This document shows positions 39,788-48,901 of a stretch of 64,000 bases of DNA, piece after piece (the stretch's first letter is position 1; every line of letters begins with the position of its first letter). A model generated the notes under the pieces. It was not told the DNA's origin. It made no database searches and saw nothing but the letters and a program-made list of their open reading frames with translations. A program made the translations under genes and the position numbers. Where the stretch lies: the NCBI GenBank assembly GCA_965218585.1, contig CBDCLE010000004.1:64001-128000 (forward strand). Reading direction: 5' to 3'. Source of the DNA: Terriglobia bacterium (GTDB lineage: Bacteria > Acidobacteriota > Terriglobia > 20CM-2-55-15).

Positions 39788-39844
39788 GGCCCTCGGGAGG
39801 CAGGTAGTGCGGGATTAGCGTGTGCTGCCCCTGTGTAGTTAGGT

Positions 39845-40117
39845 TTAGGGTTGCGTGGCAGACTCAACAACGGGGCCTACGACGAACCCGTCGTGTTCAA
39901 TGGTCCAGCCAAGATTCCGAAGGACGCTAAACATCTTATTCGGCCCAATTCTTTCCGTGCTCAGAATCTTTCGTAGATGGTCAGGATTAAGCCCCGCCTC
40001 TTCAGCGAATGTGCCTTGATTTCCCCGTCCGCGTACCTCTGATTCTTCTTGCAACCGCGCAATGAAGACAGCGGTCAGAGCATCCGCCAGAGATAGGGAT
40101 GGGGCATGGCTAGACAT
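39845..40117 (-). CDS. Small XRE/Cro-like HTH protein (transposon cargo)
   Basis: QGTFAEEAGLNPDHLRKIL resembles an XRE helix-turn-helix. Confidence 0.55.
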   Translation of the reverse strand: MSSHAPSLSLADALTAVFIARLQEESEVRGRGNQGTFAEEAGLNPDHLRKILSTERIGPNKMFSVLRNLGWTIEHDGFVVGPVVESATQP

Positions 40118-40402
40118 TTGTGTAAGCTTTTACACAAACTATGAATTGGAGTGTGGGGCCTCAAATCTCCACATACCATATATTCAATAGTTATTGTGGC
40201 GACCATATAGCATTGGACCAGATATGTCTATTTGTGTATTACTATACACAGATAGAGAGCAGTGCGACTGTTACTCTCTTCTTGACGGCATGACGACCAA
40301 TGATTACAATGAGCGATTCCACCGTGCGGGGCCCCCTCTCGTCCCTGTACAATGGTTATTGGGGCAGTTTTTCCTTTCTTCTGCCTTATCTGGGGTGATT
40401 CA

Positions 40403-41173
40403 ATGGCAACAGTCGGCAATGAAGCCCGCCTGAGGCAGGCAGATCCAACTCTGCCCGCCCGCGAGCGGTTGATCGTTGCGCTCGATTTTAACAACCGCGA
40501 CGATGCGCTGGGGCTTGTTGATAAGCTTCAAGGCGAGGTGGAAACCTATAAAGTAGGCTACGAACTCTTTATCTCTGAAGGGCCGCAGATCATTGTGAGT
40601 CTCGTACAGCACCAGAAGAAAGTGTTTCTCGATCTCAAGATGGATGATATTGGTGTCACCATGTCGCGGGCTGTGACTGCAATCAAGACTCTCGGGGTTT
40701 CTTTTCTGACGCTGAAGGGTAATGGAGCGACTGCAAGAGCGGCACGTGAAGGGCGTGGGGCTGGCCCGCCACCGCTTTTCTTGCAGGTCACGTACTTGTC
40801 GAGTCAAGATGAAGCGGACCTGCACGATGAGTATGGTGCGAATATCCCGCTGCAGCAGTTCATCAGGATTCGGGCAGAAAAGATTCTTGAGGCGGGCTGC
40901 GATGGCGTAATCGCTTCAGGTGCAAGCGTTGGGGATCTTCGAGGTTATTTGGATGGCCGCGTTGCTCGGGTGAAGACGCCAACAATCGTTGTTCCTGGTA
41001 TCAGGCCGGAGTGGGCAGAGCCGGACGACCATAAGAGATTCTTGACGCCAACGGATGCCATTCATACCGGTGCCGACTACTTAGTTGTGGGACGGCCGAT
41101 CAGGCATGCATCCGATCCAGCTGATGCAGCCCATCGAATCATCGACGAAATACATAGCGCATCTAACGTATAA
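40403..41173 (+). CDS. pyrF: Orotidine-5'-phosphate decarboxylase, divergent (transposon cargo)
   Basis: LIVALD, YKVG, FLDLKMDDI (DxKxxD), PGIRP and GADYLVVGRPI; ATG 40403 follows GGGGTGA. Confidence 0.88.
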   Translation: MATVGNEARLRQADPTLPARERLIVALDFNNRDDALGLVDKLQGEVETYKVGYELFISEGPQIIVSLVQHQKKVFLDLKMDDIGVTMSRAVTAIKTLGVSFLTLKGNGATARAAREGRGAGPPPLFLQVTYLSSQDEADLHDEYGANIPLQQFIRIRAEKILEAGCDGVIASGASVGDLRGYLDGRVARVKTPTIVVPGIRPEWAEPDDHKRFLTPTDAIHTGADYLVVGRPIRHASDPADAAHRIIDEIHSASNV

Positions 41174-41177
41174 AGTT

Positions 41178-41270
41178 TGACGGAGGGGACGGGATTCGAA
41201 CCCGCGAACTGTGGTATCAGCACAGCGCCCGATCCTAAGTCGGGTCGTTTCACCTGACAACAGCCCCTCC
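41178..41270 (-). tRNA. Atypical class II tRNA, anticodon TAG (Leu), with Ser-like acceptor stem and G73
   Basis: Acceptor GGAGGGG/CCCCTCC; anticodon arm CCCGA-CTTAGGA-TCGGG; V-arm CTGTG/CACAG; T-arm GCGGG-TTCGAAT-CCCGT; 3' end G-TCA. Confidence 0.85.
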
Positions 41271-41331
41271 GTCAATTCCCCACCCTACCCACTCCGCAGT
41301 CACATCCGGTCCATAACTCTCAACTAATAAC

Positions 41332-41360
41332 TTGCATACGGGCGTATCATATGATACATT
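41332..41360 (+). promoter_or_regulatory. Sigma-70 promoter with overlapping palindromic operator
   Basis: TTGCAT-17 nt-TACATT, with ATG 6 nt downstream (leaderless). Palindromes ATACG-GG-CGTAT and GTATCATATGATAC overlap the spacer. Confidence 0.65.
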
Positions 41361-41366
41361 ACATAA

Positions 41367-41531
41367 ATGACGACAAAGACTATTAACCTTCGGGACATGC
41401 CAGAAGATCTAGTGAGGAAAGCCAAGGCACACGCGGCACTAGAGGGAATCAGCCTGAAGGCTCTCGTCATTCAGGCCCTAGACCAGGTTGTCCGAGAGGA
41501 AAAGACAGGAAAGAAGATTAAAGAGAAATAG
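41367..41531 (+). CDS. 54-aa ribbon-helix-helix (Arc/CopG-like) protein, below the ORF-track cutoff
   Basis: MTTKTINLRDMPEDLVRKAKAHAALEGISLKALVIQALDQVV...; alternating beta-strand followed by two helices. Confidence 0.8.
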   Translation: MTTKTINLRDMPEDLVRKAKAHAALEGISLKALVIQALDQVVREEKTGKKIKEK

Positions 41532-41956
41532 ATCGGCCCTGCCCGGTGCGACTAACACCAGACAGGGCCTAACTAACTCACGCGATAGAGCCGCATGAGC
41601 CAGCCATCAAACTCATTGTGAACCTGTCCGCGTGGAAAGGCAAGGTTCACAATGACCTGCATCCACTGCCAGCACGACCGAGTTAGAAAGTCCGGCACCT
41701 ACGGTAAGAAACGCATCCAGCGTTACCGTTGCACGTTCTGCGATAAGACCTTCTCAGAAGCCCAAGAAAAGCCTCTCGGAAAGCTCCGTATATCAGTCGA
41801 GAAAGCCGTCCAGATCGTCAATTGCCTCGTCGAAGGTTGCGGTATCCGTGCCACTTCGAGATTGTGTGACGTAGACGCAAAGACGGTTCTTGCCGTACTT
41901 GAGTTGGCCGGAGAACGATGCCAACGGCTCATGGACCGAAAGTTGTACGGCATCAA

Positions 41957-42995
41957 TCGCTTTGACAACGTAAAAAGAGCCCACCCCCGGGTTAATGGTT
42001 TGTAAGTAAATCCGCCGTCGGGGTTGCGGGAAGTGTGGAAGCCGAAAGCTTCCAAGCCGCGGTGGTAACGCGCCGGCTTTGCAGCGGGTTTCCACGGTGG
42101 CGACACTTTCCACAGCCGCTCGCTCGCGTGTGTTTCACGCGGAACCTTGGGCGGACCGGGGTTTCTTCTTCCGTTTGCCCGCGGCACCGAGACTCTCGGT
42201 GAAGCGGATACTTTCCCAATCGAACTGATGAATCGCACAGTGATGGGTCAATCGGTCCAGCAGGGCCGCGGTCAGGGCGGCATCGCCGAACACGCTGGTC
42301 CACTGCGCAAACGGCAGGTTCGACGTCACGATGAGGGAACCCTTTTCGTACCGGTCCGAGAAGACCTGAAACAGCAACTGGGCACCCTCGGCCGAGAACG
42401 GGATATAGCCGACCTCGTCGACGATGAGCAGCTCGAAGCGGGACAACTTCGCCAGTTGCCGCTTCAACTGTCGCTCCTCACGGGACTCGATCAGCGTATT
42501 GACCCGCCCCGCGGCCGTGGTGAACCCGACGCGGTAGCCCCTCCGGCAGGCTTCCACGCCCAGCACCGTCGCGGCGTGGGTCTTGCCGGTGCCGTGCTTG
42601 CCCAACAGCACGACGTTCTCGCACCGGGTGATGGTGTCGCACTCGGCCGGCTGCTCCCGATCGGCCCGCAGCCAGCCCTCCACGATCCCGGCCACCGGGT
42701 CCATCACCGGACAGGCCGGCTCCTTCTCCCGCCGATACTTCGGCTCCTGGCCGGCCAATACTTTCCGGACCGTCCGTCTCGTGTGCCCGGTCTCCCGGGC
42801 GATCTGTCGAATGCTTTTCTTGTAAACTCGATGTGCGGTCCTGACCATCTCGTACTGATCCATCCCTAACAACTCCTTATCCTCCCTCCGCCATGCCGGT
42901 TCATCCAGGCACTCGCCGGGGGAGGCTATCAGGGTGGGTCCTTTTTCCTCGATCAGAACCCCGTTTGGTGGGTCCTTTTTACGTTATCGAAATCA
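41957..42995 (-). mobile_element. Internally deleted IS21-family element (1039 bp)
   Basis: IRs ..AACGTAAAAAG..CCCACC at both ends with an internal repeat; 5-bp TSD ATCAA at 41952-41956 and 42996-43000. Confidence 0.9.
42135..42872 (-). CDS. In-frame IstA(HTH)::IstB(AAA+) deletion fusion
   Basis: SIRQIARETGHTRRTVRK...EQPA is joined to ECDTITRCENVVLLGKHGTGKT...LIVDEVGY...ALLDRLTHH. Confidence 0.85.
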   Translation of the reverse strand: MLGMDQYEMVRTAHRVYKKSIRQIARETGHTRRTVRKVLAGQEPKYRREKEPACPVMDPVAGIVEGWLRADREQPAECDTITRCENVVLLGKHGTGKTHAATVLGVEACRRGYRVGFTTAAGRVNTLIESREERQLKRQLAKLSRFELLIVDEVGYIPFSAEGAQLLFQVFSDRYEKGSLIVTSNLPFAQWTSVFGDAALTAALLDRLTHHCAIHQFDWESIRFTESLGAAGKRKKKPRSAQGSA

Positions 42996-43082
42996 ATCAA
43001 TGCACAGCAGATCCAGTGCGACGAAATTTGGACTTTTGTTCAGAAGAAAGAAAGGCGCATTAAACCTTGGGAGAATGGCAAT

Positions 43083-44447
43083 GAGGTCGTTCCAATCGGT
43101 GTGTAAAAAGAGAAGGCGGTGTACGCTTTCGGTGAATTCGAAACCGTAAGCAATCCCGGCAGCAATCGGGAGAAAGGTACACCACCCATGAAGAAGAAGA
43201 ACATACCGGCATCAGTGGCGTCAACGAACGCGTATGAAGGTTTGGAGGACTGGGCGCGATCCCGGGTCCAAGTCTGGCTACAGGAGCTGCTCGAGGACGA
43301 AGTCACTCAATTTCTGGGTCGGGAAAAGTCGGAGCGGAGTCCGAATCGACGAGGATACCGGAACGGTCACGGGAAACCGCGACGCTTCGCAATGATGAAC
43401 GGTACGATGGAGGTTCGACGACCTCGGGTTCGAAACACCGCCGAGCGGTTCGAGAGTCAGATCCTGCCGTATTTTCGACGGAAATCGAAACAGCTGGGCG
43501 AGCTACTTCCCGATCTCTACCTCCACGGTCTGGCCACAGGGGACTTCGAGCAGGCCATGCGCGGACTGCTTGGCGCTGGCGCTCCGTTGTCGCGAGCATC
43601 GATCCAACGACTGAAATCGACCTGGCAGTTGGAGTATGACGAGTGGGTCCAGCAGGACCTGTCCGGCCTCGAGGTCGTGTACCAGTGGGCAGACGGCTTG
43701 TACGTGAAAGCGGGGATCGCGAAAGAGCGAGCGGCATTGCTGGTGATCATCGGAGCCTTGTCAGACGGGCGCAAAGTGCTGTTGGCCTGTGAGAGCGGGC
43801 AGCGGGAAAGCAAGGAGTCCTGGAGCCGCATTCTGCGCAATCTCCAGAGACGGGGCCTGAAGCTGGGACGGCTGACTGTCGCGGACGGTCACCTGGGCAT
43901 CTGGTCCGCGCTGGCCGAGCAACAGCCCCAGGGCCAGGAACAACGCTGCTGGAACCACAAGTCGATCAACGTGGTCGATCATCTGCCGAAGACCGAGCAG
44001 CCCGCGGCCAGACAGCTGCTTCATGGGATGGCCTTCGCGAACTCCCGCGCGGCCTGCGAACGAAAGCGGGATCAGTTCGTCCGCCGATATGAGAAGAACT
44101 ATCCCAAAGCGGGTGAGACGCTGTTGCGGGACTGGGACCGGATGATTACTTTCTATGAGTTCCCGAAACAACACTGGGTGCATCTGAGAACAACCAACAT
44201 CGTCGAATCGCCCTTCGACATGGTTCGCCTCCGCACCAACGCCGCTCGCCGATTCAAGCGTGTCGAGAATGCAACGGCAATGATCTGGAAGCTACTACGT
44301 GTCGCTGAGAAGGCTTGGCGACACTTAAAAGGATCCGAACTCTTACAAGAGGTCTATGATGGTCAGCAATTCGCTGACGGCATCAGAGTCGTGATGAAAT
44401 CGAAGGCCGCCGCCTGATGACTTTTACACACCTTTTGTAATAACCTC
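43083..44447 (+). mobile_element. IS256-family element, complete second copy
   Basis: Near-identical to 15372-16736; 8-bp TSD ATGGCAAT at 43075-43082 and 44448-44455. Confidence 0.95.
43188..44417 (+). CDS. IS256-family transposase
   Basis: Protein identical to the other full copy. Confidence 0.93.
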   Translation: MKKKNIPASVASTNAYEGLEDWARSRVQVWLQELLEDEVTQFLGREKSERSPNRRGYRNGHGKPRRFAMMNGTMEVRRPRVRNTAERFESQILPYFRRKSKQLGELLPDLYLHGLATGDFEQAMRGLLGAGAPLSRASIQRLKSTWQLEYDEWVQQDLSGLEVVYQWADGLYVKAGIAKERAALLVIIGALSDGRKVLLACESGQRESKESWSRILRNLQRRGLKLGRLTVADGHLGIWSALAEQQPQGQEQRCWNHKSINVVDHLPKTEQPAARQLLHGMAFANSRAACERKRDQFVRRYEKNYPKAGETLLRDWDRMITFYEFPKQHWVHLRTTNIVESPFDMVRLRTNAARRFKRVENATAMIWKLLRVAEKAWRHLKGSELLQEVYDGQQFADGIRVVMKSKAAA

Positions 44448-44674
44448 ATGGCAATGAGATCGGAAGCCAGTACGTTTTCGTGGCGTTTGACCGTGACTCG
44501 AAACTCGCTATCAACCACACGATAGGAAAGCGTAGCCCAGCTACAACCCGTCAATTCGTGGGTGACCTGAAACGCCGTGTCAGTGGGAGGGTGCAAATCA
44601 GCACAGACGGATTTGGAGCTTATCTTGGCGCAATCGAGGATACGTTCGGGGCCAACGTCGATTACGCTCAACTA

Positions 44675-45488
44675 GAGCGTGTTAACACTAATGTAGTGCC
44701 TCGACGATGAGTGCGAAGTGAAGGAAAGCGAGGAACATGACGTCGAGTTTATCGAAACGGGAGAAGATACGCCGAAAATCCTTGAGTCGGCGGAAGAGCC
44801 TCTCGACTTCGTTCCTGCGGCGGTAGAGCACGCGGTCGTATTCCCACGGCTCCAGGCGGTTGCGCTTGGGCGGCACGACGGGAATCCACCCAAAATCCAG
44901 AGCCAATTGGCGGGTCTGGTCGTCCTGGTAGGCACGGTCCATCAGCAGCGGCAGTGGCGCGGGCAACGGCCCCAGGCCGGCGAGCAGATCGCGGCCCTGC
45001 GGGGCGTCGTGCGCTTGGCCGGGCGAGAGCGCAAACGTTATCGCCGTTCGAGCATTCGCGGCAACCAGATGAATCTTGGTGGTCCATCCACCGCGGGATT
45101 TGCCGATCGCTTGCGGACCGTTTTTTTTAACGCTCCCGTGCCGTCGGGATGCACCTTCACAATGGTCGAGTCCATCGAAACGGCTTCCACCCGGATGCGC
45201 ACCAGTTGCTCGCGCTGGAGTTTTTCGAAGACGGCGTCGAGCACCCCGTTCTTGGACCAGCGGTTCATCCGGGTGTAGATGGTGTGCCAGTTGCCAAAGC
45301 GCTTGGGCAGACCGCGCCACTTGCAGCCCTGCTCAGCCACATACAAAATGGCGTTCAAGACCGTCAGGTTCGAAAGACTGACGTTGCCCCGCCGACGCGG
45401 CAGTTCCGGCTCGATGCGACAATACTGCTCCTGTGTGATCTCCATGCCTGATTATAAAACATTCATGCTCATTAGTGTTAACACACCC
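44675..45488 (-). mobile_element. IS5-family (IS427-like) element, two ORFs (45445-45038 and through 44688) joined by a probable -1 frameshift
   Basis: IR G.G.GTGTTAACACTAAT; TA duplication in a CTAG target; A8 run at 45121-45128 (ALKK / KKNGPQAIG); GWTTKIH, MDRAY and RNEVERLF motifs. Confidence 0.92.
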
Positions 45489-45833
45489 TAGTGAAGGTCT
45501 ACCAGAATGAACCCGCAAGGCGAGGACGTTATGCCCCATCGAAGTTCGTCCGGGCGATCTCAACCACCATATCGGGCAATCCCGATCCCAAGCTCATCTG
45601 TACGTCCCACGTCGAACGATGCAATCTCACTATGCGCACCTTCATGCGGCGATTGACGCGCCTATGCCTCGGATTCTCGAAGAAGTTGGACAATCTGAAA
45701 GCCGCAGTCGCATTGCATTTCGCGTGGTACAACTTCTGCCGGGTTCACAGGAGCCTTCGGGTGACTCCTTGTATGGAGGCTGGGTTGGAGGATCATATCT
45801 GGACGATTGAGGAGCTAATCGCATGAGATACTA

Positions 45834-47072
45834 CTACTATGTTACAAACGGTCTATTTTATGTTAGCATCCGGTCATGAGCGCCAAATCGAAGGCGCCAG
45901 GCACTCAGGAAAAACGTTTTGCGGCCTATTTGGAACGCCTGGCGTCGGCCGCAGGACACGCCGATCGTCATGAACCGTTGAAGTCGTACTGCACCGGGTT
46001 GTTGCTGCCGATCAAACGTAAGAGTGTGGAGCCGATGGCTGCACGATTGGCTCCGGATAATGTACGCCGAATGCACCAGTCGCTACATCATCTGGTCGCG
46101 GATGCGCCCTGGGACGATGCGGCTCTGTTGGCAGAAGTTCGACAGTACGCGCTGGGGGCGATGGAAGCCAACGGTCCGATTGAAGCCTGGATTGTCGACG
46201 ACACCGGATTCGTGAAAAAGGGGACCCACTCGGTGGGTGTGGCCCGGCAATACTGTGGACAGGTCGGCAAACCTGAGAACTGCCGGGTGGCGGTGAGCCT
46301 GTCGGTGGCGACAGCGAAATCCAGCTTGCCGGTGGCATGGCGACTCTACCTCCCCGAGACCTGGGCGAAGGATCCGGAACGTCGAAGCAAAGCCGCTATT
46401 CCCGAAGACGTTCGATTTCAAACTAAACCTCAAATTGCTTTGGAACAAATCCGGCAGGCCGTCGATGACGGCATTGCTCCGGCACCGGTTCTGGGCGATA
46501 CGGCCTACGGCAACAACTACAAGTTCCGGCACGGCATCACCGAACTCGGACTTAGCTACGTCCTAGGGGTGCAAGGCACCACGACCGTGTGGAAACCGGG
46601 CCAGGGTCCCTTGCCGCCGAAATCCTTGACCGGCCGCGGACGGACACCGACCCGCATGCAGCGCAACAAGAAACATCAACCGGTTTCGGTCAAGCAACTG
46701 GCCCTCTCGTTGTCTCCCCAGCGTTGGAAGAACGTCTCCTGGCGCGAAGGCACCTCCGAGACCCTGCGTTCCCGTTTCGCCGCAGTTCGCATTCGTCCCG
46801 CTCATCTGGATCACGAGCGCCACTCGCCGCATCCGAAAGAGTGGTTGTTGGTCGCCGAGCGGAGCTGTTTTTCCCCCTCTGCATTTGTCGAGCATGTTGG
46901 ACTATCCGTCCCCAAACTCCCCAAACACTTCAAACCCCGCAGAACCCCGGATCCGGCCCGAACGACATAACCCCTGCTCGATTGCCACGCTTCGCATTCG
47001 CATCGCCCGCTTCCTGATTCAGCAGCTTCCTCATTGTCCGTTCTGTGGACCGCTTCGTTTATAACACAGTAG
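45834..47072 (+). mobile_element. IS701-family element
   Basis: IRs CTACTATGTTACAAACG / CGTTTATAACACAGTAG; TSD TACTA at 45829-45833 and 47073-47077. Confidence 0.9.
45876..46970 (+). pseudogene. IS701-family transposase with probable in-frame internal deletion
   Basis: IVDDTGFVKKG, QYCG and GDTAYG are present. EWLL runs straight into VAER, so the usual RWxIE catalytic segment is missing. Confidence 0.75.
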
Positions 47073-47173
47073 TACTACAAGGGCTACAGGAAAAAAATAT
47101 CAGAACAAAAGCACACGCTGATATGGATTGACCCTGTCAAGCTTCCGTTACGTTTCTCGAATGCGCCTCCTTC

Positions 47174-47375
47174 AATGTGCTGGATTCAGGGCGCGGCCGG
47201 CATGATTCGCGACGGTGGATCACTCTGATATTCGTGGGTTGGCTACCACCTGACATCACTTCGTCGCGGAGCTGCCTCGGTCTAAGGACGTGGGTCGGTC
47301 TGGCTGAGCCAAGCCTCTCATAGCGTGCACGAGGATTCTCCTCACCGGCCTGCCACGCCCTGAATCCAACACATT
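47174..47375 (-). ncRNA. Putative bridge/seekRNA
   Basis: A 24-bp closing stem (47174-47197 with 47352-47375) encloses segments matching the target and the donor junction. Confidence 0.7.
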
Positions 47376-47527
47376 ACGTTTTTTGGGTCCAGCCTTGCTC
47401 CGGAAGCGCATGATGGCATTGCGCCCGGGGAGGCGTCGGAGGAGTTTTCCACACCTTGTCCATGGCACCGCGTGCTTCGAATACACGGCGGAGCAGTGGC
47501 AAGGTGTGGAGAACTCCGGCCCATCTC

Positions 47528-48658
47528 TCAGCTCCGCGCCCGCGTTGCATGGGCTCGGCCCATCACCTCGCAAGCAATCGCCCAGATGAACCCCACCAGC
47601 TCGCGGGCCACCGCGGTGGTGACCACGCACTTCGCCTTGCCCGCGCTATACAGATGCCGGTACCGCGCACACAGCCGCTTCTGGGCTGCCCAGGCGATGG
47701 CCTGCACTGCTGGCGGCGCCGCACTCGCCTTGCATCTCAAGTGCCTGGTTTTGCGCGCAGGGAACCGGTAGCTCCAGGCCGATTCAACCAGCACGCGGCG
47801 CACGTGTCCATTGCCTGTTTTCGTGATGGCTCCTTGGCGCCGCCGCGGCCCCGAGGAGTGCTCGCTCGGCACCAGCCCCAGAAAGCTCATCAGCTCGCGC
47901 GGCGAATCAAAACGCGTCAGGTCCCCGAGTTCGGCCAGCACCGTCATGGCCGTGACCACATCCACCCCGCGCAACGCGATCAGCGCCTCGACCATCGGAC
48001 GCAGCGACCACCGCTCCAACACCTCGCGCATCTGCCCTTCCAGGCCCGCCACGCGGCGGCGCGCCTCCATCACCGTATCGACGTATTCCTGAAACACCAC
48101 CTGCTGTACCGGATGCTCGAACCGCTGCTCCTCCAGCCACCGAAAGTGCCGTTGCGTCCACCGGCTCTTGCCTTCCCGATACACTCGATCATGACGCAGC
48201 AGAAACACCCCCAGTCGCTGCCGAGCCTTGGCCTCGATCGCCTTCATGTCCTCGCGCGCCCGCGTCAGGTCGCGCATCGCCTCCTGCTCCTCGTCGGGCA
48301 CCCACACCGCCGTCAGCTCCCCCGACCGATGCAGCCGCGCCAGCTTCACCGCGTCGCGCCGATCCGTCTTCACTCGCTCCCCCGCGCGCCGCGGGATCAG
48401 GCTCGGCGCGACCACCTCGCAATAGTGGCCGGTGTCGATGATCTCTCGATACACCCCATACCCGCACGGTCCCGCCTCGTAGCAGAAGCTCAACACCTCT
48501 GCGTGCGGACTCAGGCTGCGAATGAGTCGCAGCAGCGATTTGCGTTGATTCTTGATCTCGCCCCGGTACACCGGCGCCTCACGTCCGGGCAGCGCTACCG
48601 CCACCGCGATCGTGTCCTTGTGAACGTCCAGTCCAACGTATGCACTACACTTGTTCAT
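47528..48658 (-). CDS. IS110-family recombinase
   Basis: YVGLDVHK, YEAGPCG, KTDRRDA, GLVPSEHSSG and ITKTGN motifs; ATG at 48658. Confidence 0.95.
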   Translation of the reverse strand: MNKCSAYVGLDVHKDTIAVAVALPGREAPVYRGEIKNQRKSLLRLIRSLSPHAEVLSFCYEAGPCGYGVYREIIDTGHYCEVVAPSLIPRRAGERVKTDRRDAVKLARLHRSGELTAVWVPDEEQEAMRDLTRAREDMKAIEAKARQRLGVFLLRHDRVYREGKSRWTQRHFRWLEEQRFEHPVQQVVFQEYVDTVMEARRRVAGLEGQMREVLERWSLRPMVEALIALRGVDVVTAMTVLAELGDLTRFDSPRELMSFLGLVPSEHSSGPRRRQGAITKTGNGHVRRVLVESAWSYRFPARKTRHLRCKASAAPPAVQAIAWAAQKRLCARYRHLYSAGKAKCVVTTAVARELVGFIWAIACEVMGRAHATRARS

Positions 48659-48901
48659 GACCTGCCCTCCTCGTTGTGGCTCTGTGTCGAAGGTTCCTCG
48701 CCCCGCAACATAACCCACGCGTACGAGGCCAGGGCAGGTCAATCCATGGTGTCTAATCCCGCACTACCGGGAGGCAAGAGTTGGCCGTCTTTCGGGGCCT
48801 CTCCGCGCATTTTCCTGGTAGGCGGTGCTGGCACGCCCGGCACCGTTCTTATGAAAGGACTTTCGTCGTTTGGTGGGACCCCTTATCTCCGCAGAAAGGA
48901 G

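Follow-up and report, generated by a model that had tools for sequence, protein, structure and literature searches.

The insertion sequences (ISs) IS4321 and IS5075, reportedly first described by Partridge and Hall in 2003, combine a DEDD transposase, a non-coding region downstream of its gene, and orientation-specific insertion into the terminal inverted repeats (IRs) of Tn3/Tn21-family transposons. The same combination is found in an element at 47120-48754, on the minus strand, of a 64,000-nucleotide stretch of DNA from a Terriglobia bacterium (GCA_965218585.1, contig CBDCLE010000004.1, positions 64,001 to 128,000), here called the window; positions given without a contig name are window coordinates. 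RNA-guided DEDD recombinases, the natural retargeting of their guides, and IS1111 elements in Tn21-family IRs are already in print, and what is new here is the lineage, the cut position, and the likely harmlessness of the insertion to the host transposon. We put at about 75% the probability that the element is an IS1111-group IS with a guide RNA tuned to the inner tip of Tn3-family IRs, and that its copy in the window occupies a look-alike site. IS110/IS1111 recombinases are under development as genome-editing tools, and the aiming of a natural guide is therefore of interest.

Compared to IS4321 and IS5075, the transposase of the element is only 24.6-25.6% identical, over 61% of the query. In the IS5075 insertion that we compared (plasmid locus L118), the IR is cut near its middle, with 17 inner-end bases on one side and 23 bases to the outer GGGG on the other, whereas the present element cuts at the inner boundary, between positions 35 and 36 of the IR, and leaves the outer 35 bases and the stop codon of tnpA intact. 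Judged by the identity of about 25% and the differing cut position, the element is not part of the IS4321/IS5075 subgroup; with it, Tn3/Tn21-family ends would be the target of two distantly related lineages, the second of which enters at a new position that appears not to destroy them. Among named relatives, the closest found was an ISEc45-family element in an Escherichia coli plasmid record (48.5% identity over 95% of the transposase). Searches of open-access text found no description of an IS110/IS1111 element that cuts a Tn3-family IR at its inner end; the lists of IS targets and RNA folds in the supplements of the 2024 papers might include a relative.

Two further systems bear on how the element may work. 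With ISEc11, ISKpn4, ISPst6, and ISPa11, as presented in PMC11187229, it shares the downstream non-coding region, subterminal repeats with extensions of 7 and 3 bases, relatives that are naturally reprogrammed, and two short overlapping strand matches with the top-strand match first. Those elements have a demonstrated seekRNA and target linear sites, attC, or repetitive extragenic palindromic (REP) sequences, whereas the target of the predicted RNA of the present element is the inner tip of a transposon IR. The bridge RNA of IS621, an IS110-group element (PMC11208160), resembles ours in its target and donor loops, its use of one guide per strand, and its CT core, and differs in lying upstream of the gene in the left end; in IS1111-type elements such as ours it lies downstream, in the right end, and the subterminal repeats are long. 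For IS1111 elements, PMC11208160 predicts a bridge RNA that has two loops and lies in the right end.

In the explanation that we favor, the 408-nt non-coding end that follows the transposase gene gives rise to an RNA, and this RNA would guide the DEDD recombinase. On the 5' side of its target loop, GUGCACGCUAU (target guide 1, 47320-47330, minus strand) would pair with the element-sense target strand across the CT core, and on the 3' side UCCUUAG (target guide 2, 47282-47288, minus strand) would pair with the other strand, the two together specifying approximately GCACG-CT-AAG(G). The joined IS ends would be recognized likewise by the donor loop, through GUGAUGUCA (donor guide 1, 47251-47259, minus strand), which is predicted to pair with the IS left end beside the core and mirrors target guide 1 in position, and GAAUAUCAGA (donor guide 2, 47224-47233, minus strand), which has the same sense as the IS right end plus core. 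Recombination at the CT core would yield a single orientation and no duplication besides the core. Effectively, the guides would read about five bases through target guide 1, the CT core, and three bases through target guide 2. The ten specified bases correspond to the inner tip of the 38-bp terminal IRs of Tn3/Tn21-type transposons, and in a public plasmid a Tn21-family IR has an inner end of ten bases identical to the predicted target. For the circle intermediate, the RNA processing, and the strand-exchange chemistry, we infer the course set out in the literature on the family.

In this genome, the guide region is present in 8 copies that represent 8 insertion events: five full copies (99.7-100% identical, the four beyond the window's own being 99.7-99.8% identical), two truncated copies on contig C9, and one copy split between contigs C19 and C10. 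All 8 events have the same orientation, with the right end beside ...ACGCT and every left end that is present adjoining AA(G), and the junction pattern ACGCT|GATATGG...GGTGTCT|AA is common to all copies. In five of the 8 events the IS sits in 38-mers of the form GGGGTC...(T)ACGCT|IS|CTAAG, and homology between these copies begins exactly at GGGG. A GGGG start and a TAAG end are features that we take to mark Tn3-family IRs, the comparison having been made with one plasmid IR only; 38-bp IRs with this start and end were found at these five sites. On C19, a resolvase gene (tnpR) and a Tn3-type tnpA (PF01526), the latter itself cut by another IS, lie between the full copy and the left-end part of the split copy. 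The C19 pair carries identical IR sequence, and the outer IR half that belongs to the split copy now lies on C10. The C4b event adjoins a resolvase remnant, and in the C9 pair everything between the two IS copies is missing. No 5-bp target duplications were seen around the Tn3-type IRs.

Two of these arrangements deserve separate description. At C9 158656-160447 (locus L124), the truncated copies are fused head to head at 159254, joining IS positions 574 and 1169, and next to each of them lies the outer portion of a Tn3-type IR; the fusion may be a genuine palindromic rearrangement or may have arisen in assembly. The split copy occupies C19 188597-188957 and C10 133836-135127 with an 11-base overlap (IS positions 1287-1297), and both parts adjoin a 419-amino acid (aa) open reading frame (ORF) of another IS, which suggests insertion followed by recombination, or a repeat-induced misjoin.

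In Tn3-type IRs, the point of entry coincides with the tnpA stop codon. After insertion, the outer side reads ...ACGCT followed by GAT, not AAG, and 36 of the 38 IR positions are therefore unchanged. The stop codon TAG, composed of one flank base and the core, is kept at C19 188598-188600, and the transposase gene of the IS starts 95 bases downstream of it on the same strand. Since both the stop codon and 36 of 38 IR positions are preserved, the IS probably travels as cargo and does not kill the transposon. From this arrangement, we suggest that it may ride within a still-functional transposon, with read-through from tnpA.

The copy in the window lies in a different kind of end. It is inserted in the right IR of an IS1-like transposon (39803-48768, plus strand), and the preliminary description of the locus had proposed that the guide RNA is programmed against the terminal IR of IS1-family transposons, making the element a dedicated parasite of their ends. 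The insertion does split this IR into 10 and 14 bases exactly at the CT core, and the guide matches the site at 8 of 10 bases with both differences wobble-compatible. An identical IR is found at the other end of the host: the 24 bases of the right IR recur uninterrupted on the minus strand at 39826-39803 (24/24), this left IR (39803-39826, plus strand) forming an intact and unoccupied twin of the target. Because the twin represents the empty site, it fixes the IS boundaries and the CT core. The empty twin tells against a guide evolved for IS1-family ends, as does the position of seven of the 8 events in the genome elsewhere. Those seven lie in unrelated flanks that have in common only (Y)ACG-CT-AA(G), a result that the preliminary description had itself named as contrary to its proposal. 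When up to 6 mismatches are allowed, the genome holds no further copy of the host IR except for 2 matches, both at 6 mismatches, that look like chance. The window site has 4 contiguous bases matching target guide 1 and 2 matching target guide 2 (CACG-CT-AA), and the C10a and C16 sites (TTGCACG-CT-AA) match better, with 6 contiguous bases 5' of the core. An 8/10 match to the site is moreover reached in 268 of 2000 dinucleotide shuffles of the non-coding end. The motif also points outward in the IS1-like IR, reading from inside to outside, whereas it points inward in the Tn3-type IRs, so no geometry is common to the two. We therefore regard the window copy as a secondary look-alike insertion, because its match is weak, 28 intact genome sites (the twin IR included) fall in the same match class, and its polarity is opposite; specialization on IS1-family ends is very improbable. 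Of the broader idea of a parasite of transposon ends, the part that holds is that the lineage lives in such ends, mostly Tn3-type IRs (5/8) in place of the IS1-family ones named originally. The split of the IS1-like IR is probably disabling for the host; the suggestion that it immobilizes the host is moot, however, because the transposase gene of that transposon is already broken by three other insertions.

To judge the guides themselves, we compared them with the flanks and ends of related elements. Target guide 1 was scored as a hexamer against the 6 bases 5' of the core (right-end side) at 64 loci, which gave 49 unique pairs and 32 hexamers. True pairs agreed at 4.33 of 6 positions and mismatched pairs at 1.93 of 6, and none of 10000 permutations reached the observed value; a few low scores stem from the alignment being out of register by one base. 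For target guide 2 (51 unique pairs), identity was 0.90 versus 0.28 at position -2, 0.57 versus 0.26 at -3, and 0.37 versus 0.26 at the fourth position, again with 0 of 10000 permutations reaching the observed value. These permutation counts overstate significance because related loci are not independent; even so, the guide-flank signal across the 32 guides is plain. Donor guide 2 covaries with the right end: of 14 loci with the variant ATACCAG, 13 have a CCATACCAG end, and of 55 with ATATCAG, 53 have a CATATCAG end. Donor guide 1 matches at 6 of 7 bases here and at 7 of 7 in 2 of the 61 tabulated related loci (GTGATGTC beside left end AGACATCA), 6/7 being the commonest pairing among related loci; its covariation is weak since IS ends hardly vary.

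When the window copy is judged against its own flanks alone, three of the four guide matches are not unusual for chance: besides the figure for target guide 1 given above, the same 2000 shuffles contained the UUAG match 671 times and a donor guide 1 match of at least 6/7 861 times, compared to 26 for donor guide 2. The exact 9-mer TGCACGCTA, common to the flanks of two other copies, was reached in 1 of 2000. The real support for the guides is this shared 9-mer together with the guide-flank covariation across relatives, which is strong. The modest matches at the window copy, and the fact that the role of the RNA here is read from sequence, would also suit an explanation in which the protein chooses the target and the conserved non-coding region is a mere regulatory or terminator structure. 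Such a structure would not account for variable loop bases that covary with the flanks across 32 guides, nor for stems that covary while the loop positions hold their register, and an RNA requirement has been demonstrated experimentally in other IS1111 members, as reported in PMC11187229. We consider target choice by the protein barely tenable.

The predicted precursor, a seekRNA/bridge RNA-like structured guide RNA at 47173-47376 (minus strand), consists of a closing stem, a target loop, and a donor loop; the window sequence has a minimum free energy of -94.7 kcal/mol (z = -5.1). For comparative analysis, at least 7,998 of 8,000 scored candidates were transposase relatives at E <= 1e-30, the top 120 being 73-93% identical, and 80 related loci were taken from named genomes out of 490 confirmed in the genome collection. 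The RNA block is kept in 78 of the 80. We aligned 51 distinct sequences, comprising the window, a metagenome locus (L125), and 49 of 63 distinct loci, with 14 near-duplicates left out. The consensus contains 9 helices with 51 pairs, of which 36 show compensatory change on both sides, and 93.1% of cells are paired, compared to 75.2% in column shuffles (0/500 reaching the observed value) and 36.6-44.1% with partners slid by 1-3 columns. The closing stem has 24 pairs (10 + 14), all with compensatory changes across the 51 sequences. The target loop is enclosed by the helix pair GGAG..CCUC / GAGG..CUCC, with target guide 1 on its 5' side, then a variable hairpin, then target guide 2, and the donor loop is enclosed by the helix GCGACG / CGUCGC, within which donor guide 1 is followed by a GGUGG/CCCAC hairpin and donor guide 2. 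A search of 46900-48900 against Rfam with permissive filters returned three microRNA matches at chance level (E = 0.12-0.52) and nothing else, neither a bridge RNA family nor a seekRNA family among them. The 32 guides with their flanks, together with the covarying fold, form a clean data set that defines the target-reading loop positions in this subfamily.

These comparisons bear out much of the preliminary description. The letters and coordinates it gave for 47110-48768 are accurate, the IR is split exactly at the CT core as the intact twin and an 8-bp duplication (GGGAGGCA) attest, and the 24-bp closing stem it had proposed recurs as the 24 consensus pairs. The four guide-like segments lie where it had placed them, both mismatches of target guide 1 being G-U compatible, and their assignment as target and donor guides is corroborated by the covariation with flanks and ends. 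Its identification of an IS110/IS1111-type element with a bridge/seekRNA-like guide RNA agrees with the domains, motif, repeats, and covarying fold.

All 8 occupied sites are ends of repeated elements. The two best-matched sites in the genome are both occupied, and the six weaker-matched occupied sites are all mobile-element ends; 67 intact empty sites match the guides (by contiguous match) as well as or better than these six, and only one of the 67, the twin IR, is a known element end. One alternative is that an approximately 8-10-bp motif is targeted anywhere, with the excess at transposon ends arising as a by-product, from neutral sites carried along by transposons and the loss of copies in genes. 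This fits the window copy, which lies in an unrelated IR that merely holds the motif, the landing of related elements with other guides in many kinds of sequence, and two cases of flanks unlike IRs, namely those of the same-guide element of locus L125 and of a contig of run X3. Set against it are the 67 empty sites, the restriction of all 8 insertions to element ends, and the match of the full ten bases of the guide to the conserved inner tip of a Tn21-family IR, and we hold it to be unlikely. IR variants lacking the motif are empty: the C10a site has one diverged, unoccupied look-alike (27/30 outer bases) with a tip reading ACGATAAG, and a GGGGTC-type IR variant with ACTTTAAG is also unoccupied. 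We count both for targeting of the Tn3 tip.

That insertions are all in mobile-element ends despite many equal free sites hints that pairing is not the sole determinant. Empty sites with an equal match could reflect purifying selection, spread on transposons, contacts that escape the analysis, or some DNA state that is preferred and that transposon ends offer. A tentative and rather doubtful extension of Tn3-tip targeting is that the guide evolved, independently of IS4321/IS5075, to fit the 10 bp that are invariant at the inner end of Tn3-family IRs, that the IS boards the boundary between IR and tnpA stop without damage and rides as cargo, possibly with tnpA read-through, and that insertion may need more than pairing, such as bound transposase, a DNA state, or replication timing. 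An extra requirement of this kind at transposon ends would explain both the presence of 8/8 copies in mobile-element ends and the 67 equal sites that are empty.

Several observations concern other repeats and candidates. An end-like repeat, ...GGGGGACGGTGGGCCCG-ACGCTAA..., found at about 16 places (among them C4 118663 and C4 31287), holds the target 7-mer and is never occupied, and another repeat, ...CTGGCCTCTCCC-ACGCTAAC..., is likewise untouched in its 14 copies. We considered TniA-type transposons beside the C16 and C10a sites and rejected them, as the ORFs with rve and Mu-C-terminal domains adjoin IstB and are more likely IS21 IstA. A look-alike of the C16 site at C26 182820 lies by hrcA and dnaJ and is probably due to chance.

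A further set of findings weighs against targeting of the Tn3 tip by the guide. The C16 and C10a sites, which match the guides best, fall in no assigned transposon family. The Tn3-type sites have only 3 contiguous bases 5' of the core that match target guide 1, and pairing alone therefore leaves the preference for them unexplained. Among 401 genomes of the phylum, the window's own was the only one to carry this guide. The L125 element adjoins ordinary genes (a TctC-type receptor and an Ig-like domain) with no recognizable IR, and the X3 contig continues into a flank unlike an IR. In an RNA-library run (X20), a single 153-nt contig covers 47931-48082, only part of the transposase gene and none of the guide RNA, and is uninformative on expression. 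The transposase, at 376 aa (369-387 aa in relatives), also lies outside the 330-350 aa range of the IS1111 group, a descriptive range and no strict criterion in PMC11187229.

Outside this genome, the transposase was found at E <= 1e-40 in only one of 40 relatives of the window's genome (G018, 50% identity). In the plasmid collection, a DNA search with the non-coding end matched 14 records, in all of them only at the conserved core of the donor loop and never with this guide, and no record from a protein search exceeded 65.4% identity. In a named metagenome-assembled genome (MAG), an element with 97% identity has a CTAAG flank and a resolvase gene 145 bp from its left end. The metagenome scan returned the same guide in 1 contig. 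In run X8, which may not be independent of this genome, one contig joins a GGGGTCGAG-type IR to the right end. The 86%-identical metagenome element L125, with the same guide, has the junctions ...TTCGCACG-CT|IS|CT-AGGATT.

Related elements with other guides show varied sites. A second lineage in a Paracoccaceae MAG (L061, guide AUCACGCU) has one of its five insertions in GGGG...ACGCT|IS|CTAAGG, of Tn3-IR form, the other four sites being looser. Related elements of differing lineages (L060, L077, L081, L083, L094-L098, L107, L109, and L110) have nearly the same target, ...TAAGTCCGACAGGCTC-CT, and others sit in REP-like palindromes beginning GGAGC. In L087, L088, L091, L095, and L096, the right end and its subterminal repeat are duplicated in tandem, 164 or 77 bases apart, and in the Halomonas loci (L087, L088, and L091) part of the donor loop is duplicated too.

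The anatomy of the element agrees closely with that of the IS1111 group. It measures 1,635 bp with one copy of the CT core, its boundaries being taken from the intact twin: IS-specific DNA spans 47120-48752, the target-side CT core lies at 47118-47119 (plus strand) and its second copy at 48753-48754, and the flanks are AGCACACGCT (47110-47119) and AATCCCGCACTACC (48755-48768). The twin reads ACG-CT-AA without the IS. The 376-aa DEDD transposase (47528-48658, minus strand) matches PF01548 (DEDD_Tnp_IS110; E = 1.3e-15) and PF02371 (Transposase_20; E = 1.9e-20) and scores 262.6 bits against NCBIfam NF033542, "IS110 family RNA-guided transposase" (cut-off 140). Its GLVPSEHSSG corresponds to the GL-P----S(T)G motif that PMC11187229 gives for the C-terminal domain of the group. 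Perfect 11-bp subterminal inverted repeats at 48737-48747 (left) and 47123-47133 (right, kept in most related loci) pair with each other. A 7-base extension (48748-48754) lies on the transposase-proximal side and a 3-base extension (47120-47122) on the other, in line with the repeats of about 11-13 bp and extensions of 7 bases left and 3 bases right reported there. The longer non-coding region is the one downstream of the transposase gene (408 nt, 47120-47527, versus 96 nt upstream, 48659-48754), and insertion is site- and orientation-specific with no duplication except the core in 8/8 events. Target guide 1 precedes target guide 2 and overlaps it on T-AG, the top-strand match thus lying 5' of the bottom-strand match; in the IS1111 seekRNAs of PMC11187229, a match to one strand likewise comes first and then one to the other, overlapping at the core. 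The element fits six of the seven testable IS1111 features, the exception being transposase length, and by these sequence features it is an ordinary member of the IS1111 group (IS110 family) with a bridge/seekRNA-like guide RNA.

Near the right end, a -35-like hexamer TTGACA (47135-47140, minus strand) would face CACCAT of the left end after circle joining and is a candidate junction promoter; "ttgaca" precedes the repeat in most related loci, and a junction promoter is described for the family in PMC11187229. Directly after the transposase stop and upstream of the guide RNA is a 77-nt imperfect hairpin (47441-47517), which most relatives are without. A 57-nt piece overlapping its first arm (47424-47480) recurs alone, 100% identical, at C1 48163-48219.

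The host of the window copy is a 9-kb transposon whose terminal IRs are perfect over 24 bp. Outside both IRs lies the direct repeat GGGAGGCA of 8 bp, at 39795-39802 and 48769-48776, and the flanks of 39803 and 48768 are only 85-239 bases apart in three of four same-genus genomes and about 4.5 kb apart in the fourth. Because of the twin IR, the duplication, and these closely spaced flanks, 39803-48768 can be recognized as an inserted element. Its transposase gene, located by tblastn with a 325-aa homologue from contig C7, is in four pieces (41637-41954, 42990-43064, 44459-44716, and 45488-45823, plus strand; stop 45824-45826), interrupted by three insertions: a fragment of IS21-like type and two elements, one IS256-like and one of DDE_Tnp_1 type. 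With an IS701-like element and the present IS1111-type element, five IS elements or fragments are nested in the host, and the locus, with five layers of nested elements, is relevant to genome annotation.

The label "IS1-family" given to the host in the preliminary description stands in so far as the NCBIfam IS1 model NF033558 is the best-scoring family (87.5 bits for the 325-aa homologue, 47.2 for the first piece), and is weakened by the curated cut-off of 100 lying above both scores. The IS1/IS1595 zinc-binding domain, with 28 bits, just reaches its cut-off, which is also 28, and PF03400 (IS1) scores 18.5 bits, under the cut-off of 24.1. The 24-bp IRs and 8-bp duplication fit what we take to be typical of the IS1 family, namely IRs of about 20-25 bp and target duplications of 8-9 bp. 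The label is a reasonable one for this transposon, though its transposase scores below the curated cut-off. For IS1-like relatives on C7 and C22, homology stops at the ORF and the element ends are consequently not definable.

Between the left IR and the transposase gene lies pyrF (40352-41173), an apparent passenger; the pyrF-bearing IS1-like transposon is absent from the same place in three of the four same-genus genomes. The IS701-family element (45829-47077, plus strand; NCBIfam NF033540, 325 bits; Pfam DDE_5) is an independent insertion that starts just past the IS1-like transposase stop and ends about 40 bp before the insertion point of the IS1111-type element. The possibility that it was itself the host, with the IS1111-type element inserted outside any IR, was ruled out by the twin IR and the 8-bp duplication. 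Its first 1 kb or so matches 23 other places in the genome. At 46840-46860, the copy is without about 213 bp that are present in other copies, between 12-bp repeats, and its transposase is therefore broken into the frames 45876-46970 and 46589-47017.

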